The position numbers and the translations under genes were made by a program. The notes under the pieces are model-generated. The model had not been told where the DNA came from, made no database searches, and worked only from the letters and a program-made list of their open reading frames with translations. Positions 21,229-60,052 of a stretch of 64,000 nt of DNA are shown here, one piece after another. Every line of letters starts with the position of its first letter. Positions within the stretch are counted from its first letter, which is position 1. Source of the DNA: Alistipes sp. (GTDB lineage: Bacteria > Bacteroidota > Bacteroidia > Bacteroidales > Rikenellaceae); the NCBI GenBank assembly GCA_017410165.1, contig JAFQRH010000007.1:4447-68446 (forward strand), read 5' to 3'.

Positions 21229-22350
21229 CTATTGTGCCATTGCCGGCTGCTTGTGTTTTATACGCGAGGTGACCCTCTTCCAGTCGAGCAATCGCCACCA
21301 ATCGCGTACGAAATCGGCTCGACGATTACGATGGTCGATATAGTAGGCGTGTTCCCACACATCAAGCGTCAGTAACGGGTTCAGCCCCGAACGCAACGGA
21401 TTACCCGCATTCGATGTCGAGACAATCGACAGCCGACCATCCTTATCCTCGACGAGCCATACCCAACCCGAACCAAATAGTGAGGTTGCCGCCTTTGTGA
21501 ACTGCTCTTTGAAGGCATCTACCCCACCGAAATCGCGTTCGATGGCTCTACGCAACTCGGCAGGCATATCGGTTTGCGTCGGGGTGAGCGTATTGAAAAA
21601 GAGCGTATGGTTCCAAACCTGCGCAGCATTATTAAACAGCGCACCGTCGGCGTGAACGACAAGCGAGTCGAGCGTCATCCCTTCGCAGGGCGAGCCGACC
21701 GCCAAGCGATTCAGATTATCGACATACGTTTGCAGGTGTTTGCCGTAGTGGTAGTCGATGGTTTCGCGGCTCATCAGCGGAGCCAAAGCGTCTGCCGAGT
21801 ATGGCAGTGAAGGCATTGTGTAATTCATAATTTTATCGGTTTTGGTTACGTTCGGTTGAGCAACGACCACCTTTACAACATCCCCCGCCCGCAATCGGTT
21901 ATGTAGGTAGATATATCCGTTGAGATAGGTAGCGAAGAATAGCCACAGCAGGTATGGCACCATAAGCCACGCGGCCAACAGACGACGCGAGGCGGCATAT
22001 ATTATATAGGTAAAGACCAACACATCGAGCAGAAGAATCGTTATGAGTCCCGCAAGAGGCGAACGCAATGCAAAGAATACTACGCTCCACAGAAAATTGA
22101 CCAGCAGTTGTAGCAACCACAGGCGCACGACACTCATATCCCCTCGCGAAACAAGCACTCCGATACTCACGCCCATAAGCAGATAGAGCACGCTCCACGC
22201 AATCGGGAAGACGATATTCGGAGGCGTTAGCGGCGAACGCACCAATGTCGGATACCACTCTTCGAGTGCCGAGGTTTGGAGCATCGAGCCAATGACACCA
22301 ACTCCGAAGCACAGCAGTATAGGCACAACGTATGACAACACCTTTCTCAT
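21229..22350 (-). CDS. TspO/MBR tryptophan-rich sensory domain fused in frame to an Fe/Mn superoxide dismutase
   Basis: WYPTL..SPLTPPN.VF..AW..LY.LMG and LWL.FATYLN (TspO), then YHYGKH, NAAQVWNH, FGSGW, DVWEHAYY (SOD); no stop between them; ATG at 22350. Confidence 0.9.
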   Translation of the reverse strand: MRKVLSYVVPILLCFGVGVIGSMLQTSALEEWYPTLVRSPLTPPNIVFPIAWSVLYLLMGVSIGVLVSRGDMSVVRLWLLQLLVNFLWSVVFFALRSPLAGLITILLLDVLVFTYIIYAASRRLLAAWLMVPYLLWLFFATYLNGYIYLHNRLRAGDVVKVVVAQPNVTKTDKIMNYTMPSLPYSADALAPLMSRETIDYHYGKHLQTYVDNLNRLAVGSPCEGMTLDSLVVHADGALFNNAAQVWNHTLFFNTLTPTQTDMPAELRRAIERDFGGVDAFKEQFTKAATSLFGSGWVWLVEDKDGRLSIVSTSNAGNPLRSGLNPLLTLDVWEHAYYIDHRNRRADFVRDWWRLLDWKRVTSRIKHKQPAMAQ

Positions 22351-22418
22351 AAAAGCAACAAAATTTAGTTCGTACGACGATACGCTACAAATCCAATGCC
22401 CCAATCGACAAAAAGATA

Positions 22419-22452
22419 GGTGGGTATCCGAGAAACATCTCGAATACCCACC
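22419..22452 (-). terminator. Terminator-like hairpin after MFS transporter 1
   Basis: GGTGGGTAT..CGAGA/TCTCG.ATACCCACC. Confidence 0.6.
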
Positions 22453-22480
22453 CATATTATACCCTACGCGGGGCTATACG

Positions 22481-23935
22481 CTACGCCTGTTGCTCCTCGT
22501 AGCCATCGGCTTTGGCACTCCACATCGTGAGCAACGACACCACGCCGAGCATAGCCATAATCAAAATGGTTATATACGCTGCATTCCAACCATAGTGCTG
22601 TGCTACGAAACCGAAGCCAACACCCGAGATGAGCGTACTTGCATAACCAAAGATACCAAGAATACCGTTTGCCGTAGCAGCTGCGCGGTTAGTTGCCTGA
22701 TTAGCGGCAGCAACACCCAGCAACGCCTGCGGACCATAGATAAAGAAGCCGATAAATGTAAATGGAATCATCATCAACCACCAAGGCGAACCCGTCGGAA
22801 TAACCCAAAAGAGGGCAATCGACAACGCTGCACCTATCATACAGAATACGCACGTGTGGTGTGCCTTATTCTTGAACACGTGGTCCGTAACCCAACCTGC
22901 AACGACCATACCGATATTACCGCCGATGAACTCGAATACGATACAGAGCGTTGTAGCCATAGCCAACGACAAGCCCTTCGACTCGATGAGCAACGTCGGG
23001 CCCCAGTCGAGCGCAGCAAAACGAACGACATAGACAAAGAAGTTGGTCAGCGCCAACGTCCAAATCAGACGATTGCCAAACACCTTGCGGCGAACAAATG
23101 CTTTGTACTCTGCCTTCTCCTCCGGCGTACGCACGATTGCCTTCTTCTTGCCCACAACCTCCGGAAGACCGACATCCGACGGAGAGTCTTTAAGCAGTGT
23201 GAACAATCCGATGGCACCAATCGTGGCAAATATAGCCGGAATGATGAAGCACCAACGCCAAGCATAGAAGTGTGCTGCAAAGGTGAGCACCTTCGGGTCG
23301 GTGACCTCCAAGCCGAGATTCGATGCGATAGTGGCTACCGCCTCGGCATTTGCCGACATATCGACACCCAGATGAGGCATAATATACCAGCCGCACAAGC
23401 CGAATACAAGACCTGCACCAATCGAGTGGGACATATTCCAGATGGAGAGTTTCGTAGCGAGTTCCTTCGGATGAACCCACTGCGTGATGGTCTTGGTGAT
23501 AGGCGGCACGCCCATACCCTGCAAGTAGCCATTAATCACCCACACGATGCCCATAAAGTAGAGTAACACGCTCGAAAAGGCAATCTCGACACCTGCATTA
23601 TTCGCCAACGCAACAATCCATCCGGCGATGGTATCGCTACAACCGAACAAGAAGTTAGCCAATGCACACAGCATCAAGCCAATCGAAACAACAATACGCG
23701 CGCTGTTGCGGTCCGAAATAATACCGTTCACGAAACGCGACAGACCGTAGATAATGCCGTGCAACGTAAGGAACAAACCGAGCGACACCTTCGAGATACC
23801 GAACTCAGCCGTCAAACCCGGCATTGCAACCGAAAAGTTTTTACGCACGAAGTAGAAGAACGCGTAGCCCACCATCGTAACGATGATGGTCCGCCACTGC
23901 CAATACTGAAACGAGTGTTTGGTTTTTTCAGCCAT
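22481..23935 (-). CDS. GlpT/UhpT-type organophosphate:Pi antiporter (MFS), paralog 1
   Basis: YWQWRT...GY..FYFVRKN, WNMSHSIG, YVVRF..LDWGP, FIYGPQAL; both substrate-binding Arg motifs present. Confidence 0.92.
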   Translation of the reverse strand: MAEKTKHSFQYWQWRTIIVTMVGYAFFYFVRKNFSVAMPGLTAEFGISKVSLGLFLTLHGIIYGLSRFVNGIISDRNSARIVVSIGLMLCALANFLFGCSDTIAGWIVALANNAGVEIAFSSVLLYFMGIVWVINGYLQGMGVPPITKTITQWVHPKELATKLSIWNMSHSIGAGLVFGLCGWYIMPHLGVDMSANAEAVATIASNLGLEVTDPKVLTFAAHFYAWRWCFIIPAIFATIGAIGLFTLLKDSPSDVGLPEVVGKKKAIVRTPEEKAEYKAFVRRKVFGNRLIWTLALTNFFVYVVRFAALDWGPTLLIESKGLSLAMATTLCIVFEFIGGNIGMVVAGWVTDHVFKNKAHHTCVFCMIGAALSIALFWVIPTGSPWWLMMIPFTFIGFFIYGPQALLGVAAANQATNRAAATANGILGIFGYASTLISGVGFGFVAQHYGWNAAYITILIMAMLGVVSLLTMWSAKADGYEEQQA

Positions 23936-23994
23936 TTTATCTAATTAAGTTTTAGGTTTTTAAGGTTTTTTGTTTGGTAGATGCGGTTGCGAGA

Positions 23995-25335
23995 TTACTC
24001 AACCTCCCAGATACCACCCTTGCCAAAGAGACGCTCGGTAAGTTCGGCCATAAATCCGCAACGATAGACGATATCGATATTCGTAAAGCGGCTACGCATA
24101 TACGGAATATACGAGAAGGTCTTACGCATACGCTCGCGTGTCACGCCGATATGCTCCGGCTCATAAGGAGCGCCTACCAAACGGAGGTTTTCGCGCACCT
24201 CGGCAAACGGAATAATCTGCTCACGAATCTGCTCTTTGAGCGTAGGCCAAGCGGCTTTGAGTGCCTCCAACTGCTTGCGCAAGCCCTCTTTATCGGTATA
24301 TTTACCGTAGGTCTCCTTCAAACCACGAGCAAGGTGACCAGGCATTCCTGCGAATACCTCACGAATCTCCTGCTCCTGCTCTTCCCACGACTTCCACTGC
24401 TCGACGCACTTATCAACGTCCAGATTAGCAATATCCTTCTCCAACAAGAACTCCAACGATGCGGTCGAAGCCAACGTGCCGATACCGACCTTGAAGCCGT
24501 GCGACACGTGCTTACCCTCGAAGCACAAATCCTCCATATCCCAGCAGTGCGAGAACTGGTGCTCGGTACCCGACGCCGGACGGCTCGACTGGATTGCCTG
24601 CATAGCAAAGCCACTCATAAGCAGACCCTCGGCGAGTGCCTCGGTCATCTTCAAGTCGCCCTCGTGCACAGCAGCCGGAGCCGACAACGACTCACGCAGA
24701 CCATCCTGCACCAAATCCCACGCAAACTTATCTACCGGCTCGTTACCCGTAACGTCAGCCAGCAACCAATCTGCCGCAGCAGGAATCTTCGCAATCAAAT
24801 CGGCATAACCCGACGCAGCCAACTCCTTCGGAGCATCAGCCGCAATAACAGGGTCCATCACAAAACCGTATGGAGCCGGACAATCGAACGTCTGCTTGTT
24901 GCCATCCTTGGTAATCGACGCGCCGTAAGCCGTGTAGCCATCCATCGAAGCAGCCGTACCTACACACATATATTTGCGACCGAGCAGATGCGAAGCATAC
25001 TTGGTCATATCGTTCATCACACCCGAACCGACAGCGATAGCGATTGCGTCCAGATTTTTCAGATGCTCGTGAATCTTCTCGACGTGCTGCCACTCGGCGT
25101 AGAGTTCCTTGTCGGTAAAGATAAACGGCTTCTCCTGCGGAATACCTGCCGCTTCGAGCGAAGCAAATACCGCCTTGCCGGCTACCTCCCACGTATTGAG
25201 GTCGGCAATGATGATTGCCGTCTGCTGCGGGAAGAGTTTGGCGAACATCTCTGCCGTACGCGATACCACACCGGCACCAATAATAAGGTCTTTTGTGTCT
25301 GTTGTGCGTTGAAGAGCACTCTCTACTTTGTTCAT
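23995..25335 (-). CDS. araM: sn-glycerol-1-phosphate dehydrogenase family (AraM/EgsA-like)
   Basis: AVGSGVMND..K, GTAASMDGY, SGYADLIAK, RPASGTEHQFSH, SHGFKVG. Confidence 0.88.
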   Translation of the reverse strand: MNKVESALQRTTDTKDLIIGAGVVSRTAEMFAKLFPQQTAIIIADLNTWEVAGKAVFASLEAAGIPQEKPFIFTDKELYAEWQHVEKIHEHLKNLDAIAIAVGSGVMNDMTKYASHLLGRKYMCVGTAASMDGYTAYGASITKDGNKQTFDCPAPYGFVMDPVIAADAPKELAASGYADLIAKIPAAADWLLADVTGNEPVDKFAWDLVQDGLRESLSAPAAVHEGDLKMTEALAEGLLMSGFAMQAIQSSRPASGTEHQFSHCWDMEDLCFEGKHVSHGFKVGIGTLASTASLEFLLEKDIANLDVDKCVEQWKSWEEQEQEIREVFAGMPGHLARGLKETYGKYTDKEGLRKQLEALKAAWPTLKEQIREQIIPFAEVRENLRLVGAPYEPEHIGVTRERMRKTFSYIPYMRSRFTNIDIVYRCGFMAELTERLFGKGGIWEVE

Positions 25336-25365
25336 TTTCTCTATTGTGTTTTAGTTTTACATCAT

Positions 25366-26055
25366 CTACTTCTTTTGGCCATAGTAGGCATTTGCACCGT
25401 GCTTGCGCTCGTAGTGCTTCTCGACAAGGTCGGGATTCATCTCGACCGACGGATTCAGCGCCACCGTGATAGATGCCATTCGGGCAACCTCCTCCAAAAT
25501 CACAGCGTTATGCACCGCATCGTGCGCACTCTTACCCCACGTGAATGGACCGTGATGCTTGACGAGGACCGCCGGCGTATGCATCGGATTCATACCCTCG
25601 AAGGCATCGGCAATCACATCACCGGTCGCCGCCTCGTATGCCGATTCAATCTGCTCGCGCGTCATCTCCTCCGTACACGGAATGTCGCAATAGAACGTAT
25701 CGGCGTGTGTCGTTCCGATATTCGGAATTGCGCGACCCGCCTGTGCCCAAGCCGTTGCGTAGGTCGAGTGGGTATGCACGACACCGCCAACATCCGCAAA
25801 GCGACGATAGATGGCAAGATGTGTCGGCGTATCGGACGACGGACGGAGCGTGCCATCGACCACATTACCATCCAAATCGACAACGACCATATCGTCTGCC
25901 GTCATATTATCGTACTCGACACCACTCGGCTTGATAACGACCAAACCCGTCTTACGGTCGATTGCGGAGACGTTACCCCAAGTGAGTATCACCAAATTGC
26001 GGCGCACCAATTCAAGATTGGCATCCAGCACCTCACGTTTCAACTCTTCAAGCAT
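25366..26055 (-). CDS. araD: L-ribulose-5-phosphate 4-epimerase
   Basis: [49 protein letters not shown]. Confidence 0.96.
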
Positions 26056-26248
26056 TGCTATACGTGTTTTACAGATTGATTATTTAGTTAGTTTGTCAGT
26101 GTCGGTATTTCAAAAGTTATCCTTTTCAACCACAAAAATAACTACACGGTATCAAAAAAGCAAGAAAAACTATCACCAATCGATGTTTTTCTTTCCTTTT
26201 CTTACTTTTCTACTTTGCTTTTTGCACACTTTCCATTTTTAAGCGATG

Positions 26249-26992
26249 CTACAAGCGATTCTCCTCCGCATCCTTTTCCAGCACATCGTCGCCCTCCCAC
26301 TCGAACATCGGGAAATCACGACGCGCACCAAGCGAGAAGCGCGTATAGGTTATCGGCAGACCACGACGCAGATAGACCTGCTCGTAGGCCGTCTTGACCG
26401 ACAGCACCTCATCGGCATAGCCACTGCCGTAGATATCGTTATTGGCAACCTCGCACGGCAAATCGAATCGGCGCACGACCTCTGCCGTATAGTTAAACAG
26501 GTGTTGCGAGTCGGTTTTCAGGTTAATCCAACCATCATCCTCCAAGATTTGGGCATAGTAGTTCAAAAAGACGGGCGACGTCAGACGTTTCTTTGCTCGA
26601 CGCGTTTTGAGTTGCGGATCGGGGAATGTAATCCATATCTCGGCAACCTCGCCCTTCGCAAAGAGCGACGTAATGAACTCGATACGCGCGCGAAGGAAAC
26701 CGACATTTTGCATCTTCGCCTCGGTTGCACTCTTTGCGCCGCGCCACATACGGGCACCCTTAATATCGACGCCGATAAAGTTTTTATCGGGATTGCGCTC
26801 CGCCAGAGCAACCGTATATTCGCCCTTGCCACAACCGAGTTCCAGCACTATCGGGCGGTCGTTCTTGAAAAAATCGCGATGCCAATTACCCTTCAACGGG
26901 TGGTCGCAACGGAACATCTGCTCGAATGCCGGCTGTACGAAGCACTCGAAGGTCAGATTCTCCGCAAATCGTTTAAGTTTATCTTTTCCCAT
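26249..26992 (-). CDS. trmB: tRNA (guanine-N7)-methyltransferase
   Basis: LELGCGKGE, GVDIKGAR, ITFPDPQ, LKTD. Confidence 0.96.
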   Translation of the reverse strand: MGKDKLKRFAENLTFECFVQPAFEQMFRCDHPLKGNWHRDFFKNDRPIVLELGCGKGEYTVALAERNPDKNFIGVDIKGARMWRGAKSATEAKMQNVGFLRARIEFITSLFAKGEVAEIWITFPDPQLKTRRAKKRLTSPVFLNYYAQILEDDGWINLKTDSQHLFNYTAEVVRRFDLPCEVANNDIYGSGYADEVLSVKTAYEQVYLRRGLPITYTRFSLGARRDFPMFEWEGDDVLEKDAEENRL

Positions 26993-29095: not shown

Positions 29096-29210
29096 AAGGC
29101 AAACAACCCGAAAGCCGTTATTGTTGTTACGGTTAGATGGCGAGTTGTTGTTACGGTTAGAAACACGGCAGTTGCGAGCATTATTGTACCAACTGCCCCC
29201 ACGAAGCACC
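29096..29210 (-). repeat. DGR template repeat (TR)
   Basis: 115-nt near copy of 30802-30916; minus strand reads as [38 protein letters not shown] with 12 AAY codons; 12 of 14 differences from VR are at TR adenines. Confidence 0.97.
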
Positions 29211-30217
29211 TACCTAATGACCATTAACTGTAATTTTTCACACACCGAACGTCGTAAGCACTTGGTGTACGCTCTGCGCACAAATGCCAGCAACGGAATT
29301 ATATGCTCTACATATTGTTCATCGTCCCACACTCCGTTTGCAAGTAGGTGTGTATATTTGTATATCTTTCTTTTGAACCTTATTTTGCTTCTTCTGTTAA
29401 GTACGATTTTGTCGCACGATATTCTGTACCCCAAAAATGCCACACCTCTTGTTGCAGTCTCCAATTGCGGACATTTTAAGGTAAGCGACAGTTGTTTAGA
29501 GACAAAATCGGATACTCGATTAACATATTCTTTCAAATCCTCCTTACTATGTCCGAATAACAACATATCATCCATATACCGTACATACACCGGCACACGT
29601 AATGCCTCCTTTATATAGTGATCGAGGAATGAAAGATAGAAATTTGCAAAGTACTGACTCGTAAGATTGCCAATCGGAATACCTCGCTGCGGCGTAACAG
29701 CGTAAGAATCAATAATCTTATCAAACAGATTCAACAGTTGACAATCTTTAAAAACTCGCCGCAACTGCTGTTTCAACACAACGTGCGATACCGAGTCAAA
29801 ATATTTTCTCACATCTAATTTGGCAACATAACGACACTGGCTCATACCCTGTCGAGCACGATCAATCGCAGCATACACACCTTTTCCTTCGCGTGATGCA
29901 TACGTATCGGAAATAAAGTGTTGTTCGAAGCGCGATTTACAGACATTGATTATGGCATGATGCAATACCCGCTCCTCAAACGATGCGGCACATATCACAC
30001 GCTGTTTCGGATCGTATATGTTAAAATAGTGATACCGACCGATTTTGAAAGTACCATTGAGTACTCCATCCCGTAACTCCAAAATATTATTGTAGAGATT
30101 CTTCGTAAATTGTATTACCGGCTCTTTGTGTTGTTTACCTCGTCGCGCATCATAATAGGCCGCCAAAAGATTTTCCAATGCGAGAATCCGAGGCATTAGA
30201 TTAGCAACACGTTTCAT
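29210..30217 (-). CDS. DGR reverse transcriptase
   Basis: 335 aa; YDPK.R.I.AASF.ERV.HHA, GKG, KLDVRKYFDSV, GIPIGNLTSQYFAN, YVRYMDD; no maturase/endonuclease extension; adjoins TR. Confidence 0.96.
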   Translation of the reverse strand: MKRVANLMPRILALENLLAAYYDARRGKQHKEPVIQFTKNLYNNILELRDGVLNGTFKIGRYHYFNIYDPKQRVICAASFEERVLHHAIINVCKSRFEQHFISDTYASREGKGVYAAIDRARQGMSQCRYVAKLDVRKYFDSVSHVVLKQQLRRVFKDCQLLNLFDKIIDSYAVTPQRGIPIGNLTSQYFANFYLSFLDHYIKEALRVPVYVRYMDDMLLFGHSKEDLKEYVNRVSDFVSKQLSLTLKCPQLETATRGVAFLGYRISCDKIVLNRRSKIRFKRKIYKYTHLLANGVWDDEQYVEHIIPLLAFVRRAYTKCLRRSVCEKLQLMVIR

Positions 30218-30666
30218 TGCGACTCCTCAGCAAACAATTCACACAATATGCGACCATACTTTTCAACTCGTTTATCTCCGATTCCGGAAATTTGCGTCAT
30301 AGCCGACGACTCGACTATCGGCAATTGTGCTATTTGAGCAAGTTCCGCATCGGTAAATACGGCATACGCAGGTACAGCATCATCCGCAGCAAGTCGCTTT
30401 CTAATAGCTCTCAATTTGGTAAACTTCTCGAAATCCTCCCGATTGAGCGACTCTTTATAATCGATTTTCTCTTTTCTATCCTGCGGAGAGCCAGAATATG
30501 CCGACGGCAAATATGTCACCAATACCGACCAATGCCCAATATTATCCGACGAGACATAAAACTGTCTGTCAATATCCAACACCTTGTGTCCTCGCAGAAA
30601 CTTGTTCATTATATCCTGTTCCTCTTCGCATCCACGCGACGATATATCAAAAATCTTTACCTGCAT
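30214..30666 (-). CDS. HRDC-domain DGR accessory protein
   Basis: LRAIRKRLAADDAVPAYAVFTDAELAQIA...ISGIGDKRVEKYG; its TGA overlaps the RT ATG (ATGA at 30217-30214). Confidence 0.9.
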   Translation of the reverse strand: MQVKIFDISSRGCEEEQDIMNKFLRGHKVLDIDRQFYVSSDNIGHWSVLVTYLPSAYSGSPQDRKEKIDYKESLNREDFEKFTKLRAIRKRLAADDAVPAYAVFTDAELAQIAQLPIVESSAMTQISGIGDKRVEKYGRILCELFAEESQ

Positions 30667-57477: not shown

Positions 57478-58344
57478 ATGACACAATTCAACCGATATCG
57501 TTCGATATATTCGCACGATGAACTTATGGCGCGTCTGCGTTGTCTGAAACACGTTGCCCTCGATATGGACGGCACGATTTATATGGGCACAACCCTGTTC
57601 CCATACACCAAACCGTTCCTCGCCGGCTTGAAGGATATGGGTGTTCGTCACTCATTCCTTACAAACAACCCTTCGGCGTCGATTGCCGACTATCTGGCAA
57701 AACTCGCACGTCTGGGCGTCGAGGCAACCGAGGAGGAGATGTACACCACGGCGTTGGCTACCATCGACTACATCAAGACGCACTATCCGCAAGCAAAACG
57801 ACTCTTTATGCTCGGAACACCATCGATGATTACCGAGTTCGAGAAGGCGGGCTTCGAGTCGGCAGCCGATTCGGCGGAGGATCGTCCCGATGTATTGGTC
57901 GTAGCATTCGACAAGACGCTTGCATACGACCGCCTGTGTCGCGCTGCGTGGTGGATTTCGCAGGGCGTACCTTACATTGCAACCAATCCTGACCGCGTAT
58001 GCCCTACCGACCAGCCAACCGTATTGGTCGATTGCGGTTCGATTTGCGCTTGTCTGACACACGCTACGGGTCGCACGCCGGATATCACGCTCGGCAAGCC
58101 GGACCCTAATATGTTATCAGGCATCTTGTCGCGCTACGGTTACGAGGCGGACGAGGTTGCGATGGTTGGCGACCGCATCTACACCGATATCGAGATGGCA
58201 CACAACGCCGGTGCGTTCGGCGTATTGGTACTCTCGGGCGAAACAACACTCGAAGTGGCAGACGCTGCACCGAAACAGCCGCACCTGATTTGCGACAGCA
58301 TCGAGGTACTCGGAGAACTCATCGCCGAGAGCCACAAAGAGTAA
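57478..58344 (+). CDS. HAD-IIA family sugar-phosphate phosphatase (NagD/AraL-like)
   Basis: DMDGTIY, FLTNN, ATNPD..CP, GKP, MVGDRIYTDI. Confidence 0.92.
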   Translation: MTQFNRYRSIYSHDELMARLRCLKHVALDMDGTIYMGTTLFPYTKPFLAGLKDMGVRHSFLTNNPSASIADYLAKLARLGVEATEEEMYTTALATIDYIKTHYPQAKRLFMLGTPSMITEFEKAGFESAADSAEDRPDVLVVAFDKTLAYDRLCRAAWWISQGVPYIATNPDRVCPTDQPTVLVDCGSICACLTHATGRTPDITLGKPDPNMLSGILSRYGYEADEVAMVGDRIYTDIEMAHNAGAFGVLVLSGETTLEVADAAPKQPHLICDSIEVLGELIAESHKE

Positions 58345-58381: not shown

Positions 58382-60052
58382 ATGAAGATGAATAAATCTT
58401 TCAAATATTGGCAATGGCGCACAATCATTACGACAATGCTCGGGTATGCGTTGTTCTACTTCGTGCGCAAAAACTTTTCGTTCGCAATGCCGGGTTTGGC
58501 TGCCGAATACGCTATCTCGAATACGAGTTTCGGTATCATCCTCGCCATTGTCGGCTTGGTATATGGTCTGTCGCGTTTCGCAAATGGCCTGCTCGCCGAT
58601 AGAATGAACGCACGCTACCATATGTCGCTCGGTCTGTTGCTCTGCGCGGCAGCATCGCTCGCATTTGGCTTTGCACCGGCACTGCTCGGCATTGAGATTG
58701 GCGTAGCACCGCACTCGCTCGTCGTTGCGTTCGGTGTGCTGTTGGTTCTCAACAACATCTTCCAAGGCAGCGGATTCCCGCCTTGCGCACGCCTGCTCTC
58801 GCACTGGATTCCACCGCAGGAGTTGGCTACGAAGATGTCGATTTGGAACACATCGCACTCCATCGGTGCAGGTCTGCTCGCAATCCTCTGCGGTTTCATT
58901 ATGGGACATATGGGCTCCGATTTGAGCAGCAACGCCGAGGATGTCGAGCGTATGACGCGCAACTACATAACAACCAACTTCAAGGACGATGTCAAGAAGT
59001 CGGATATCCGCATCGCAAAGGTAAACAGCGTCAGCGTCTCGGAGGCAAACGACGCTACGGTGGCACAGGTGGTATATACCTACAAACCAAACTACGAGGA
59101 TGGTCGTCGCGTGAGCGAGGCATATATCTTTACGCACGAGGACTATACGGATGTAAAGTCGCTCATCGCAGAGAATGCCAAGATTACGACCGAGGAGATT
59201 GCCTCCGACACGGGTCTGCCTGCACCACAAGCAAAGGCATTGCAGAGCATCGTTTCGCTCTCGTCGAATGCAGGTGCGTGGAGATGGTGTTTCTGGTTGC
59301 CGGGCATCATTGCGCTGATTGGCGCGTTAGGTATATTCGTATTCCTGCGCGACACGCCTAAATCGGTCGGTCTGCCGGAGCTCGAAAACAAGACCTCGGC
59401 TCTTGCCGACGACACCAATCCGGAGGAGTATCGCCGATTTGTACGCAAGAAGGTATATGGCAATAAACTGATATGGATTTTGGCCTTTGCCAACTTCTTC
59501 GTCTATGTCGTTCGTTTCTCGGTACTCGATTGGGGTCCAAAATTCCTCACCGAAGCACGCGATATGTCCTATGCGTACGCAGGATGGACGGTAGCAATCT
59601 TCGAGATTTTCGGCATTATCGGAATGCTTGCAGCCGGCTGGGCGACGGACAAGTGGTTTGGTGGCCGTGCGCACCGCACTTGTGTATTCTGTATGCTCGG
59701 AACGGCACTGTTTATGACCATATTCTACCTATTACCGGGTGACGTACATCCGCTCGTGCTAATCTGCGTATTGGCAATGGCGGGCTTCTTCATCTACGGT
59801 CCACAAGCACTCATCGGTATTGCCGCTGCAAATCAGGCGACCAAGAAGGCGGCCGCTACGGCAAACGGTTTGACCGGCATATTCGGCTATTTGAGCGTAT
59901 TCGTATCGGGTCTTGGCGTCGGCGTATTGGTCGATCACTTCGGATGGAATTACGTATTTGTCGGTATGATTGCAATGGCCGTAGTCGGTATGGGTGTATT
60001 CCTGCTGATGTGGGGCGCAAAGCGCGATGGCTACGACGAGCAGACGGCGTAG
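58382..60052 (+). CDS. GlpT/UhpT-type MFS transporter, paralog 2, with ~82-aa extramembrane insertion
   Basis: YWQWRT...FYFVRKN, WNTSHSIG, YVVRF..LDWGP, FIYGPQAL; extra soluble segment before AWRW. Confidence 0.92.
   Translation: MKMNKSFKYWQWRTIITTMLGYALFYFVRKNFSFAMPGLAAEYAISNTSFGIILAIVGLVYGLSRFANGLLADRMNARYHMSLGLLLCAAASLAFGFAPALLGIEIGVAPHSLVVAFGVLLVLNNIFQGSGFPPCARLLSHWIPPQELATKMSIWNTSHSIGAGLLAILCGFIMGHMGSDLSSNAEDVERMTRNYITTNFKDDVKKSDIRIAKVNSVSVSEANDATVAQVVYTYKPNYEDGRRVSEAYIFTHEDYTDVKSLIAENAKITTEEIASDTGLPAPQAKALQSIVSLSSNAGAWRWCFWLPGIIALIGALGIFVFLRDTPKSVGLPELENKTSALADDTNPEEYRRFVRKKVYGNKLIWILAFANFFVYVVRFSVLDWGPKFLTEARDMSYAYAGWTVAIFEIFGIIGMLAAGWATDKWFGGRAHRTCVFCMLGTALFMTIFYLLPGDVHPLVLICVLAMAGFFIYGPQALIGIAAANQATKKAAATANGLTGIFGYLSVFVSGLGVGVLVDHFGWNYVFVGMIAMAVVGMGVFLLMWGAKRDGYDEQTA

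Follow-up and report, generated by a model that had tools for sequence, protein, structure and literature searches.

What does an arabinose-type epimerase do in an operon for phosphorylated compounds, and what does that operon take up and oxidize? The question is raised by a 64,000-nucleotide stretch of an Alistipes sp. genome (contig JAFQRH010000007.1, positions 4,447 to 68,446; G000:C5:4447-68446), referred to here as the window, in which araD stands in a row with genes for an AraM-like dehydrogenase and a GlpT-like transporter. The genome measures 1.95 Mb and is 98.9% complete, and its close protein relatives come from Alistipes or Bacteroidales metagenome-assembled genomes (MAGs) of ruminant and other animal guts. 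We propose, with moderate confidence, that this three-gene operon of a ruminant-gut Alistipes scavenges phosphorylated sugar alcohols.

The araD operon and its products

Three co-oriented genes had been seen in a preliminary description of this locus, and they were recovered as minus-strand open reading frames (ORFs): araD (25366..26055), encoding 229 amino acids; a gene for a 446-amino-acid Fe-ADH_2 protein of the sn-glycerol-1-phosphate (G1P) dehydrogenase family (23995..25335); and MFS1 (22481..23935), encoding an MFS protein of 484 amino acids. The row begins with trmB (26249-26992), which lies upstream of araD on the same strand. The intergenic gaps are 193 bp between trmB and araD, 30 bp between araD and the dehydrogenase gene, and 59 bp between the latter and MFS1. 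Within the 193-bp spacer lies a predicted promoter region (26109..26140, minus strand) with a Bacteroidetes-type -7 box, TATTTTTG, at 26133-26140, and TAnnTTTG boxes occupy the equivalent position upstream of araD in the related loci L108, L109, L111 and L112. An intrinsic-terminator-like hairpin with an 18-bp stem and a T-run (22416..22455, minus strand) starts 25 nt past the MFS1 stop codon and closes the row. Because of the gaps, the -7 box and the hairpin, we regard the three genes as one transcription unit. At least 12 related species-level genomes or MAGs share this gene order; the grouping is therefore not a matter of chance, and araD, the dehydrogenase gene and MFS1 form a real, conserved and selected operon.

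One animal-gut metatranscriptome study yielded contigs that match each of the three genes at 95-99% identity, among them a contig bridging the araD/dehydrogenase junction. As contigs do not prove a transcript, DNA carry-over is possible and uncovered parts carry no meaning, these contigs were not counted as evidence.

Downstream of the -7 box is an imperfect inverted repeat, TTGAAAAG-N5-CTTTTGAA (26109-26129), which by its sequence could be an operator. No clear copies of it were found at the HAD-MFS2, glycerophosphodiesterase (GDPD), DeoR or ribulokinase loci of the genome. The idea of a shared DeoR operator and regulon was rejected on that ground and because an alignment of orthologous upstream regions yielded the -7 box alone.

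AraD was recognized by PF00596 (199 bits), NF006047 (377 bits; cut-off 257) and NF009003 (371 bits; cut-off 331), and scored slightly below the cut-off of TIGR00760 (370.6 against 389.1). Its full-length match to E. coli AraD (1JDI) scores 292 bits, and when aligned to 1JDI and 1K0W its zinc ligands, acid/base pair and phosphate-site residues are all identical. We take these sites in the E. coli enzyme to be Asp76, His95, His97 and His171 for zinc, Asp120/Tyr229 for acid/base catalysis, and Asn28, Lys42, Ser44, Gly45, Ser74 and Ser75 for phosphate. Compared with its nearest orthologue (L105), araD has a dN/dS of 0.04, equal to that of both operon neighbours. As judged from its sequence, AraD is a true L-ribulose-5-phosphate 4-epimerase under strong purifying selection and no relic.

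The dehydrogenase is a cytoplasmic protein, with no signal peptide predicted, and matches PF13685 (116 bits), which denotes the Fe-ADH_2/DHQS-like two-domain fold with an Asp/His/His metal site. Its best solved relative by sequence is AraM of Bacillus subtilis (9H4X, 120 bits), a proven Ni2+-dependent G1P dehydrogenase. The AlphaFold 2 model of the Alistipes protein has a pLDDT of 96 and superimposes on 9H4X with TM scores of 0.74/0.83. Both sequence and fold place the protein nearer to AraM than to archaeal G1P dehydrogenases or glycerol dehydrogenases, the latter being close structural relatives of it. At E<=1e-30 the family of about 445 amino acids comprises 756 clusters at 50% identity. 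In 76 members, with identities down to 29%, the DG, EHxxSH and HG metal motifs are invariant, as are the basic residues K147, R414 and R416, and K112, K183, R252 and K345 are nearly so; those conserved basic residues that align with AraM are also found in AraM. Conservation of these basic residues would suit a substrate that is anionic and phosphorylated. The most likely substrate is G1P, an ester of the glycerol-phosphate type.

A second paralogue of the dehydrogenase (group B, 42% identity; C12:71668-74502, L072) is conserved in the genus amid housekeeping genes such as LptF/G and Fmt. A secreted DUF4886-like protein adjoins group B in this genome and group A in another species (L042:7842-9464). 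The protein called AraM in the paper on Bacteroides AraR is a mutarotase and is unrelated to this dehydrogenase.

The third gene had been described as an organophosphate:phosphate antiporter (OPA) type of transporter, an assignment borne out by family models and by the retained binding residues of GlpT. MFS1 matches PF07690 (124 bits), and its best specific models are GlpT, PgtP and UhpC, each under its cut-off; TIGR00881 gives 305 bits, below its cut-off, and the glpT model TIGR00712 gives 263 bits against 632.55. The match to GlpT (1PW4) scores 203 bits. Residues R45, H165, R269, Y38, Y42, Y76, Y266, Y362 and Y393 of GlpT are all kept, with K80 replaced by Arg. We considered these binding residues as a means of discriminating between substrates and rejected them; they are identical in the OPA protein encoded beside mannitol-1-phosphate dehydrogenase and so are uninformative on substrate size.

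Two further elements of the window border on the operon or lie near it. The next ORF downstream (21229-22455, minus strand) encodes 408 amino acids, a TspO/MBR membrane domain fused with an Fe/Mn superoxide dismutase. The ATG called for this ORF falls within the terminator hairpin, which covers that start codon, and the true start may be further downstream. At 29210-30666 is an element with a reverse transcriptase and an HRDC domain, present in some strains of the species and missing at the same site in others (L030 compared with L028/L029).

Organophosphate genes in the genome and its relatives

The genome encodes five OPA transporters, each adjoining an enzyme for a phosphorylated substrate. 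MFS1 neighbours the AraM-like dehydrogenase and AraD. The second OPA protein of the window, MFS2 (58382..60052, plus strand; 556 amino acids), is paired with a HAD-IIA phosphatase of the AraL/NagD type (57478..58344, plus strand). The remaining three lie on other contigs: one on C17 beside mannitol-1-phosphate 5-dehydrogenase (MtlD; NF002646, 487 bits against 368), one on C7, the closest to GlpT at 484 bits, beside a KpsF/GutQ isomerase, and one on C19 beside a secreted GDPD. At the C17 locus (C17:13616-16241; L069:7617-10242), the MtlD gene is 25 bp upstream of the OPA gene, whose product is 47% identical to MFS1. The Alistipes lineage is not known to have a sugar phosphotransferase system. 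The pairing suggests direct import of mannitol-1-phosphate, and as a second combination of a polyol-phosphate dehydrogenase with an importer it supports the import of polyols that are already phosphorylated. Among 200 genomes of the order, none was found to have a close MtlD orthologue, and the mtlD of this genome may therefore have been acquired.

The pairing of the dehydrogenase with an OPA protein is retained down to 45-50% identity in Bacteroidota and Verrucomicrobiota and is the conserved core of the system. Around it, in varying order, are genes for a DeoR regulator, a GlpD-type glycerol-3-phosphate (G3P) dehydrogenase, a GDPD and a HAD-IIA phosphatase. Clusters of this kind occur in other Alistipes, Bacteroides, Odoribacter, Tannerellaceae, Pedobacter, Opitutaceae and others, and their stand-alone GDPDs have signal peptides or lipoboxes. 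Natural GDPD-dehydrogenase fusions, which form four independent 50%-identity clusters, are without signal peptides. Elsewhere the dehydrogenase is fused to DUF1667, to a TagD-like cytidylyltransferase, to an RpiB-like isomerase or to a SorC-type sugar-phosphate-binding domain; DUF1667 is presumably a partner of anaerobic G3P dehydrogenases. The GDPD and GlpD contexts, together with the fusions, point to a glycerol phosphate as the usual substrate of the family, in the enantiomer that GlpD cannot use.

The HAD-IIA phosphatase of the window (TIGR01460, 132 bits; cut-off 100) is 59-71% identical to the HAD proteins of these conserved clusters and is orthologous to the phosphatase encoded after the dehydrogenase-OPA pair in other taxa. 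Its relatives in the PDB include the glycerol-3-phosphate phosphatases 4I9F and 7PO7. MFS2 is 58-63% identical to the OPA proteins of ancestral-type clusters, compared with 54-60% for MFS1. The HAD-IIA gene and MFS2, 32 kb away in the window, are the other half of the ancestral module.

The preliminary description had stated that neither an isomerase nor a kinase accompanies araD in the window. For the isomerase this holds for the window and also for the whole genome, which was checked for araA as had been suggested; an alternative isomerase in place of AraA was considered and rejected, as neither AraA_N nor FucI-type genes were found in the 98.9%-complete genome. For the kinase it holds for the window only. 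A ribulokinase gene is present in an operon on another contig (C22:23363-25069; NF003154, 547 bits against a cut-off of 428). The other products of that operon (C22:19622-26836; L067) are a secreted metallophosphoesterase of 581 amino acids, a secreted enzyme of the EEP family and two FAD oxidoreductases of PF12831, both cytoplasmic. Species with the araD-dehydrogenase-OPA operon have kept this one too, and through it a polyol or ketopentose may be obtained from phosphodiester polymers.

Four GDPD genes are present in the genome, two of them tied to sugar-phosphate enzymes (C14:14065-15666 and C18:125584-128518; L187 and L186). A gene resembling rhamnulose-1-phosphate aldolase (NF002963, 276 bits against 170) is immediately adjacent, with zero gap, to one for a lipoprotein GDPD, and another secreted GDPD adjoins an NCS2 permease opposite an Rpe-like epimerase.

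Proposed route and alternative explanations

Secreted GDPDs, encoded elsewhere in this genome and adjacent to the dehydrogenase in relatives, would free glycerol-phosphate-type monoesters outside the cytoplasm; phospholipid head groups, lipoteichoic and teichoic acids, and archaeal lipids are likely sources. The GlpT-like antiporter, to judge from its family and conserved binding residues, would then exchange the monoester for phosphate. In the cytoplasm the AraM-like enzyme would oxidize the (S)-ester with NAD+ to a keto-phosphate, the likeliest reaction being that of G1P to dihydroxyacetone phosphate (DHAP), as suggested by its homology to AraM, its gene context and its fusions. Oxidation would fall to this enzyme because no GlpD-type dehydrogenase and no glycerol kinase (GlpK) were found in the genome for the job. 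It had been proposed previously that the operon imports an already phosphorylated polyol and that the AraM homologue oxidizes it. The conserved dehydrogenase-OPA pair, its GDPD, HAD-IIA, GlpD and DeoR surroundings and the GDPD fusions lend good support to such a role for the two proteins.

AraD would pass L-ribulose-5-phosphate from a five-carbon branch to the pentose-phosphate pathway, having probably been recruited into the module, with the intact active site predicted from its sequence, by a lineage that lacks araA. This branch could originate in two ways: the dehydrogenase might also act on L-arabinitol-5-phosphate, or the unlinked ribulokinase operon might phosphorylate L-ribulose.

Stereochemistry would restrict the first of these origins. 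Drawn with CH2OH on top, the C2 hydroxyl should lie to the right in G1P, D-ribitol-5-phosphate, xylitol-5-phosphate and L-arabinitol-5-phosphate. Oxidation of D-ribitol-5-phosphate, the teichoic-acid unit, should then give D-ribulose-5-phosphate, for which AraD is not needed, and xylitol-5-phosphate should give D-xylulose-5-phosphate; of these pentitol phosphates L-arabinitol-5-phosphate alone should yield L-ribulose-5-phosphate, the substrate of AraD. A ribitol-phosphate source of the kind suggested earlier would therefore have to be the other enantiomer, D-ribitol-1-phosphate, which has the G3P-like configuration.

The distribution of araD indicates that its place beside the dehydrogenase has a function. 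Among 61 genomes of the genus, 13 have AraD, in one or the other of two settings that exclude each other. All four genomes with a canonical araD-araA-araB set lack the group-A dehydrogenase, and AraA_N was not found in any of the nine AraD genomes that have it (the present genome and eight others). The gene orders observed were AraD-dehydrogenase-OPA, GDPD-AraD-dehydrogenase-OPA (L106 and L112), AraD / DeoR-dehydrogenase, AraD-dehydrogenase-DeoR, dehydrogenase-GDPD-AraD-DeoR, and DeoR-GDPD-AraD with the dehydrogenase elsewhere; GDPD adjoins AraD in four arrangements. In a maximum-likelihood tree with 87 family members, linkage to AraD requires at least 4-5 independent gains, those in Apibacter and Micropruina among them. 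In Apibacter muscae G8, a cultured bee-gut bacterium (L173 5248-17384), a DeoR gene is followed by genes for a MIP channel, fructose-6-phosphate aldolase (FSA), two dehydrogenases, a ribulokinase, a HAD-IIA protein, AraD and two further ribulokinases, and the actinobacterium Micropruina has the order dehydrogenase-ribulokinase-AraD. The araD-araL-araM order of B. subtilis is a further, published linkage of AraD with the AraM family. Because of these independent linkages and the mutual exclusion of AraA and the dehydrogenase, a functional tie between AraD and the dehydrogenase family is supported by the genomic data, and it is plausible that AraD acts on the product of the dehydrogenase.

Several points weigh against the scavenging role proposed here. 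The family of about 445 amino acids is without any assayed enzyme, and the Alistipes dehydrogenase reaches only 163 bits with the G1P dehydrogenase equivalog NF002022, whose cut-off is 413, over residues 15-289 alone. A haloarchaeal "G1P dehydrogenase" proved to be a glycolaldehyde reductase without G1P activity (PMC9700705). An obligatory coupling to AraD is disfavoured by orthologues with 62-68% identity in complete Alistipes genomes that have no AraD, those with 62-66% identity being accompanied by GDPD, HAD, OPA and DeoR genes; the core reaction of the dehydrogenase therefore needs no AraD. No residue signature divides AraD-linked from unlinked dehydrogenases, and for that reason a side-activity on five-carbon substrates is a conjecture. 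In its own genome the operon is not adjacent to GDPD, HAD or DeoR genes, and simple oxidation of G1P does not account for the conserved HAD phosphatase. The related genomes are, moreover, not independent of one another, and many are incomplete MAGs.

If AraD does act on the product of the dehydrogenase, then the physiological substrate might be a pentitol phosphate and not G1P: it would be imported, oxidized by the AraM-like enzyme to L-ribulose-5-phosphate and converted by AraD to D-xylulose-5-phosphate. Such a sequential route would make sense of AraD directly upstream in the same operon, of the GDPD-AraD-dehydrogenase-OPA order in L106 and L112, of the genus-wide occurrence of AraD with AraA or the dehydrogenase and never with both, and of Apibacter and Micropruina, where the dehydrogenase has independently become linked to both AraD and ribulokinases; L-arabinitol-5-phosphate would also share the C2 configuration of G1P. 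Against it stand the AraD-less orthologues in complete Alistipes genomes and the family contexts, most of which, through GlpD and the GDPD fusions, indicate glycerol phosphate. The abundant teichoic-acid unit, D-ribitol-5-phosphate, would be expected to give the wrong ketopentose, we know of no abundant natural source of L-arabinitol-5-phosphate, and no specificity-switch residues were found. We consider the sequential route rather unlikely.

The ribulokinase gene in a genome without an isomerase allows another arrangement, in which the dehydrogenase stands in for AraA by oxidizing an unphosphorylated polyol (L-arabinitol or ribitol) to L-ribulose, phosphorylation by the unlinked ribulokinase and epimerization by AraD follow, and the OPA proteins and the HAD phosphatase serve only to deliver the free polyol. 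The Micropruina order looks like an ara operon with its isomerase swapped out, and the Apibacter cluster, with its MIP channel, FSA, paired dehydrogenases, three ribulokinases, HAD protein and AraD, can be read similarly; its FSA-dehydrogenase layout resembles that of E. coli gldA, which we take to lie beside fsaB. Glycerol dehydrogenases are structurally close to the enzyme, and the conserved HAD phosphatase would acquire a sense. Fusions to GDPD and cytidylyltransferase domains, the basic residues held in common with AraM and the adjacent OPA importer all favour a phosphorylated substrate instead, and dephosphorylation followed by re-phosphorylation costs ATP. Replacement of AraA in this manner seems improbable to us.

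It might also be supposed that AraD is a mere co-transcribed neighbour, the remnant of a broken ara operon with no functional tie to the dehydrogenase. The linkage is confined to part of the family tree, many genomes have the dehydrogenase working without AraD, and the flank upstream of araD varies by species, being trmB, an AIR-synthase-like gene or a GDPD gene. A remnant would not be expected to show the same low dN/dS as the adjacent genes, nor would it account for at least four independent gains of linkage across phyla, for the several arrangements that have AraD flanked by GDPD and the dehydrogenase, or for the dehydrogenase in nine of nine AraA-less AraD genomes of the genus, and we give this explanation little credence.

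An anabolic role, with DHAP reduced to G1P to build a G1P-containing envelope polymer or lipid, or to provide a redox sink with the HAD phosphatase, would agree with the DHAP-reducing direction of AraM, the closest characterized relative (PMC4244643), with the cytidylyltransferase fusion in the family and with the second paralogue amid housekeeping genes, and is nonetheless very improbable given a catabolic and uptake context (OPA importer, secreted GDPD, GlpD, DeoR repressor) and a 98.9%-complete genome in which no PcrB/GGGPS (PF01884) match was found, the ground on which a role in ether-lipid synthesis was rejected.

Relation to known systems and biological meaning

The operon is a variation on the glp regulon and on the AraM/AraD/AraL set. 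No published description of it was found, in keeping with the earlier view of an undescribed route. It resembles the B. subtilis ara operon in its linkage of AraD to an AraM-like dehydrogenase, with the AraL-like HAD-IIA phosphatase 32 kb away. It differs in having no araA, an unlinked araB and an OPA antiporter instead of the AraNPQ ABC system, and its context is one of scavenging, not of arabinan use. The dehydrogenase itself is only about 23-30% identical to B. subtilis AraM and some 50 amino acids longer, and there is no PcrB to use G1P for an ether lipid.

With the glp regulon (GlpT-GlpQ-GlpD-GlpR) the operon shares a GlpT-like phosphate antiporter with the GlpT residues, and the clusters of relatives add a secreted GDPD, GlpD and a DeoR/GlpR-type regulator. 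The AraM-like NAD-dependent dehydrogenase, the HAD-IIA phosphatase and AraD are extra to that regulon, and the Alistipes genome is without GlpD and GlpK.

Marine bacteria were recently found to take up G1P via the ABC binding proteins GpxB and UgpB (PMC12718374, Dec 2025). There, too, bacteria recycle the glycerol phosphate enantiomer of the archaeal type, but through an ABC system and not an MFS antiporter, and G1P serves there as a phosphorus source with no catabolic G1P dehydrogenase named; the habitat of Alistipes, moreover, is the gut. The haloarchaeal non-carboxylating pentose bisphosphate pathway (PMC9700705) comprises a ribulose-1-phosphate aldolase, a HAD ribulose-bisphosphate phosphatase and a glycolaldehyde reductase resembling G1P dehydrogenase, and is thus similar in its trio of class II aldolase, HAD protein and G1P dehydrogenase-like Fe-ADH. 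Matches of the Alistipes proteins to its specific enzymes are weak (33, 99 and 23 bits), the Alistipes AraD is a true epimerase by sequence, and the context consists of importers and GDPD, not nucleoside enzymes.

AraM has been described as forming G1P for an ether lipid of Bacillales, and bacterial homologues have been treated as rare (PMC4244643, PMC13400652, PMC5059525). We found no paper that places a gene of the G1P dehydrogenase family in a glpT/GDPD operon, and none on the use of teichoic acid by Bacteroidota through such genes.

A broader proposal, which we put forward only tentatively and regard as possible, is that the AraM-like enzymes of about 445 amino acids are general (S)-polyol-phosphate dehydrogenases. 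Together with OPA importers or FGGY kinases, HAD-IIA phosphatases and AraD, they would constitute a so far undescribed pathway that burns G1P and pentitol phosphates derived from lipoteichoic and teichoic acids and from archaeal lipids, and that is spread widely in Bacteroidota, Verrucomicrobiota and Actinobacteria. If true, this would account for araL and araM in the arabinose operon of B. subtilis; the repeated, independent coupling of the dehydrogenase to AraD and ribulokinases bears on why that species keeps both genes there.

Archaeal lipids and lipoteichoic acid, both abundant in guts and rumens, have G1P as their backbone, and the intracellular recycling of G1P by bacteria is essentially undescribed; a conserved module of importer and dehydrogenase would fill the missing catabolic step. 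Cultured carriers of the genes, namely Alistipes timonensis, Pedobacter chitinilyticus, Apibacter muscae and Opitutaceae EW11, make the idea of G1P and polyol-phosphate use directly testable, and A. muscae G8 is a ready model for the pentitol branch. For Alistipes, the operon adds to the picture of a small-genome bacterium living on phosphorylated microbial debris, with five OPA importers, four GDPDs and secreted nucleases. The recurrence of the partnership of araD, dehydrogenase and importer in several phyla is probably the sign of a mode of nutrition not described before, in which the phosphorylated sugar alcohols of other microbes' envelopes are consumed.

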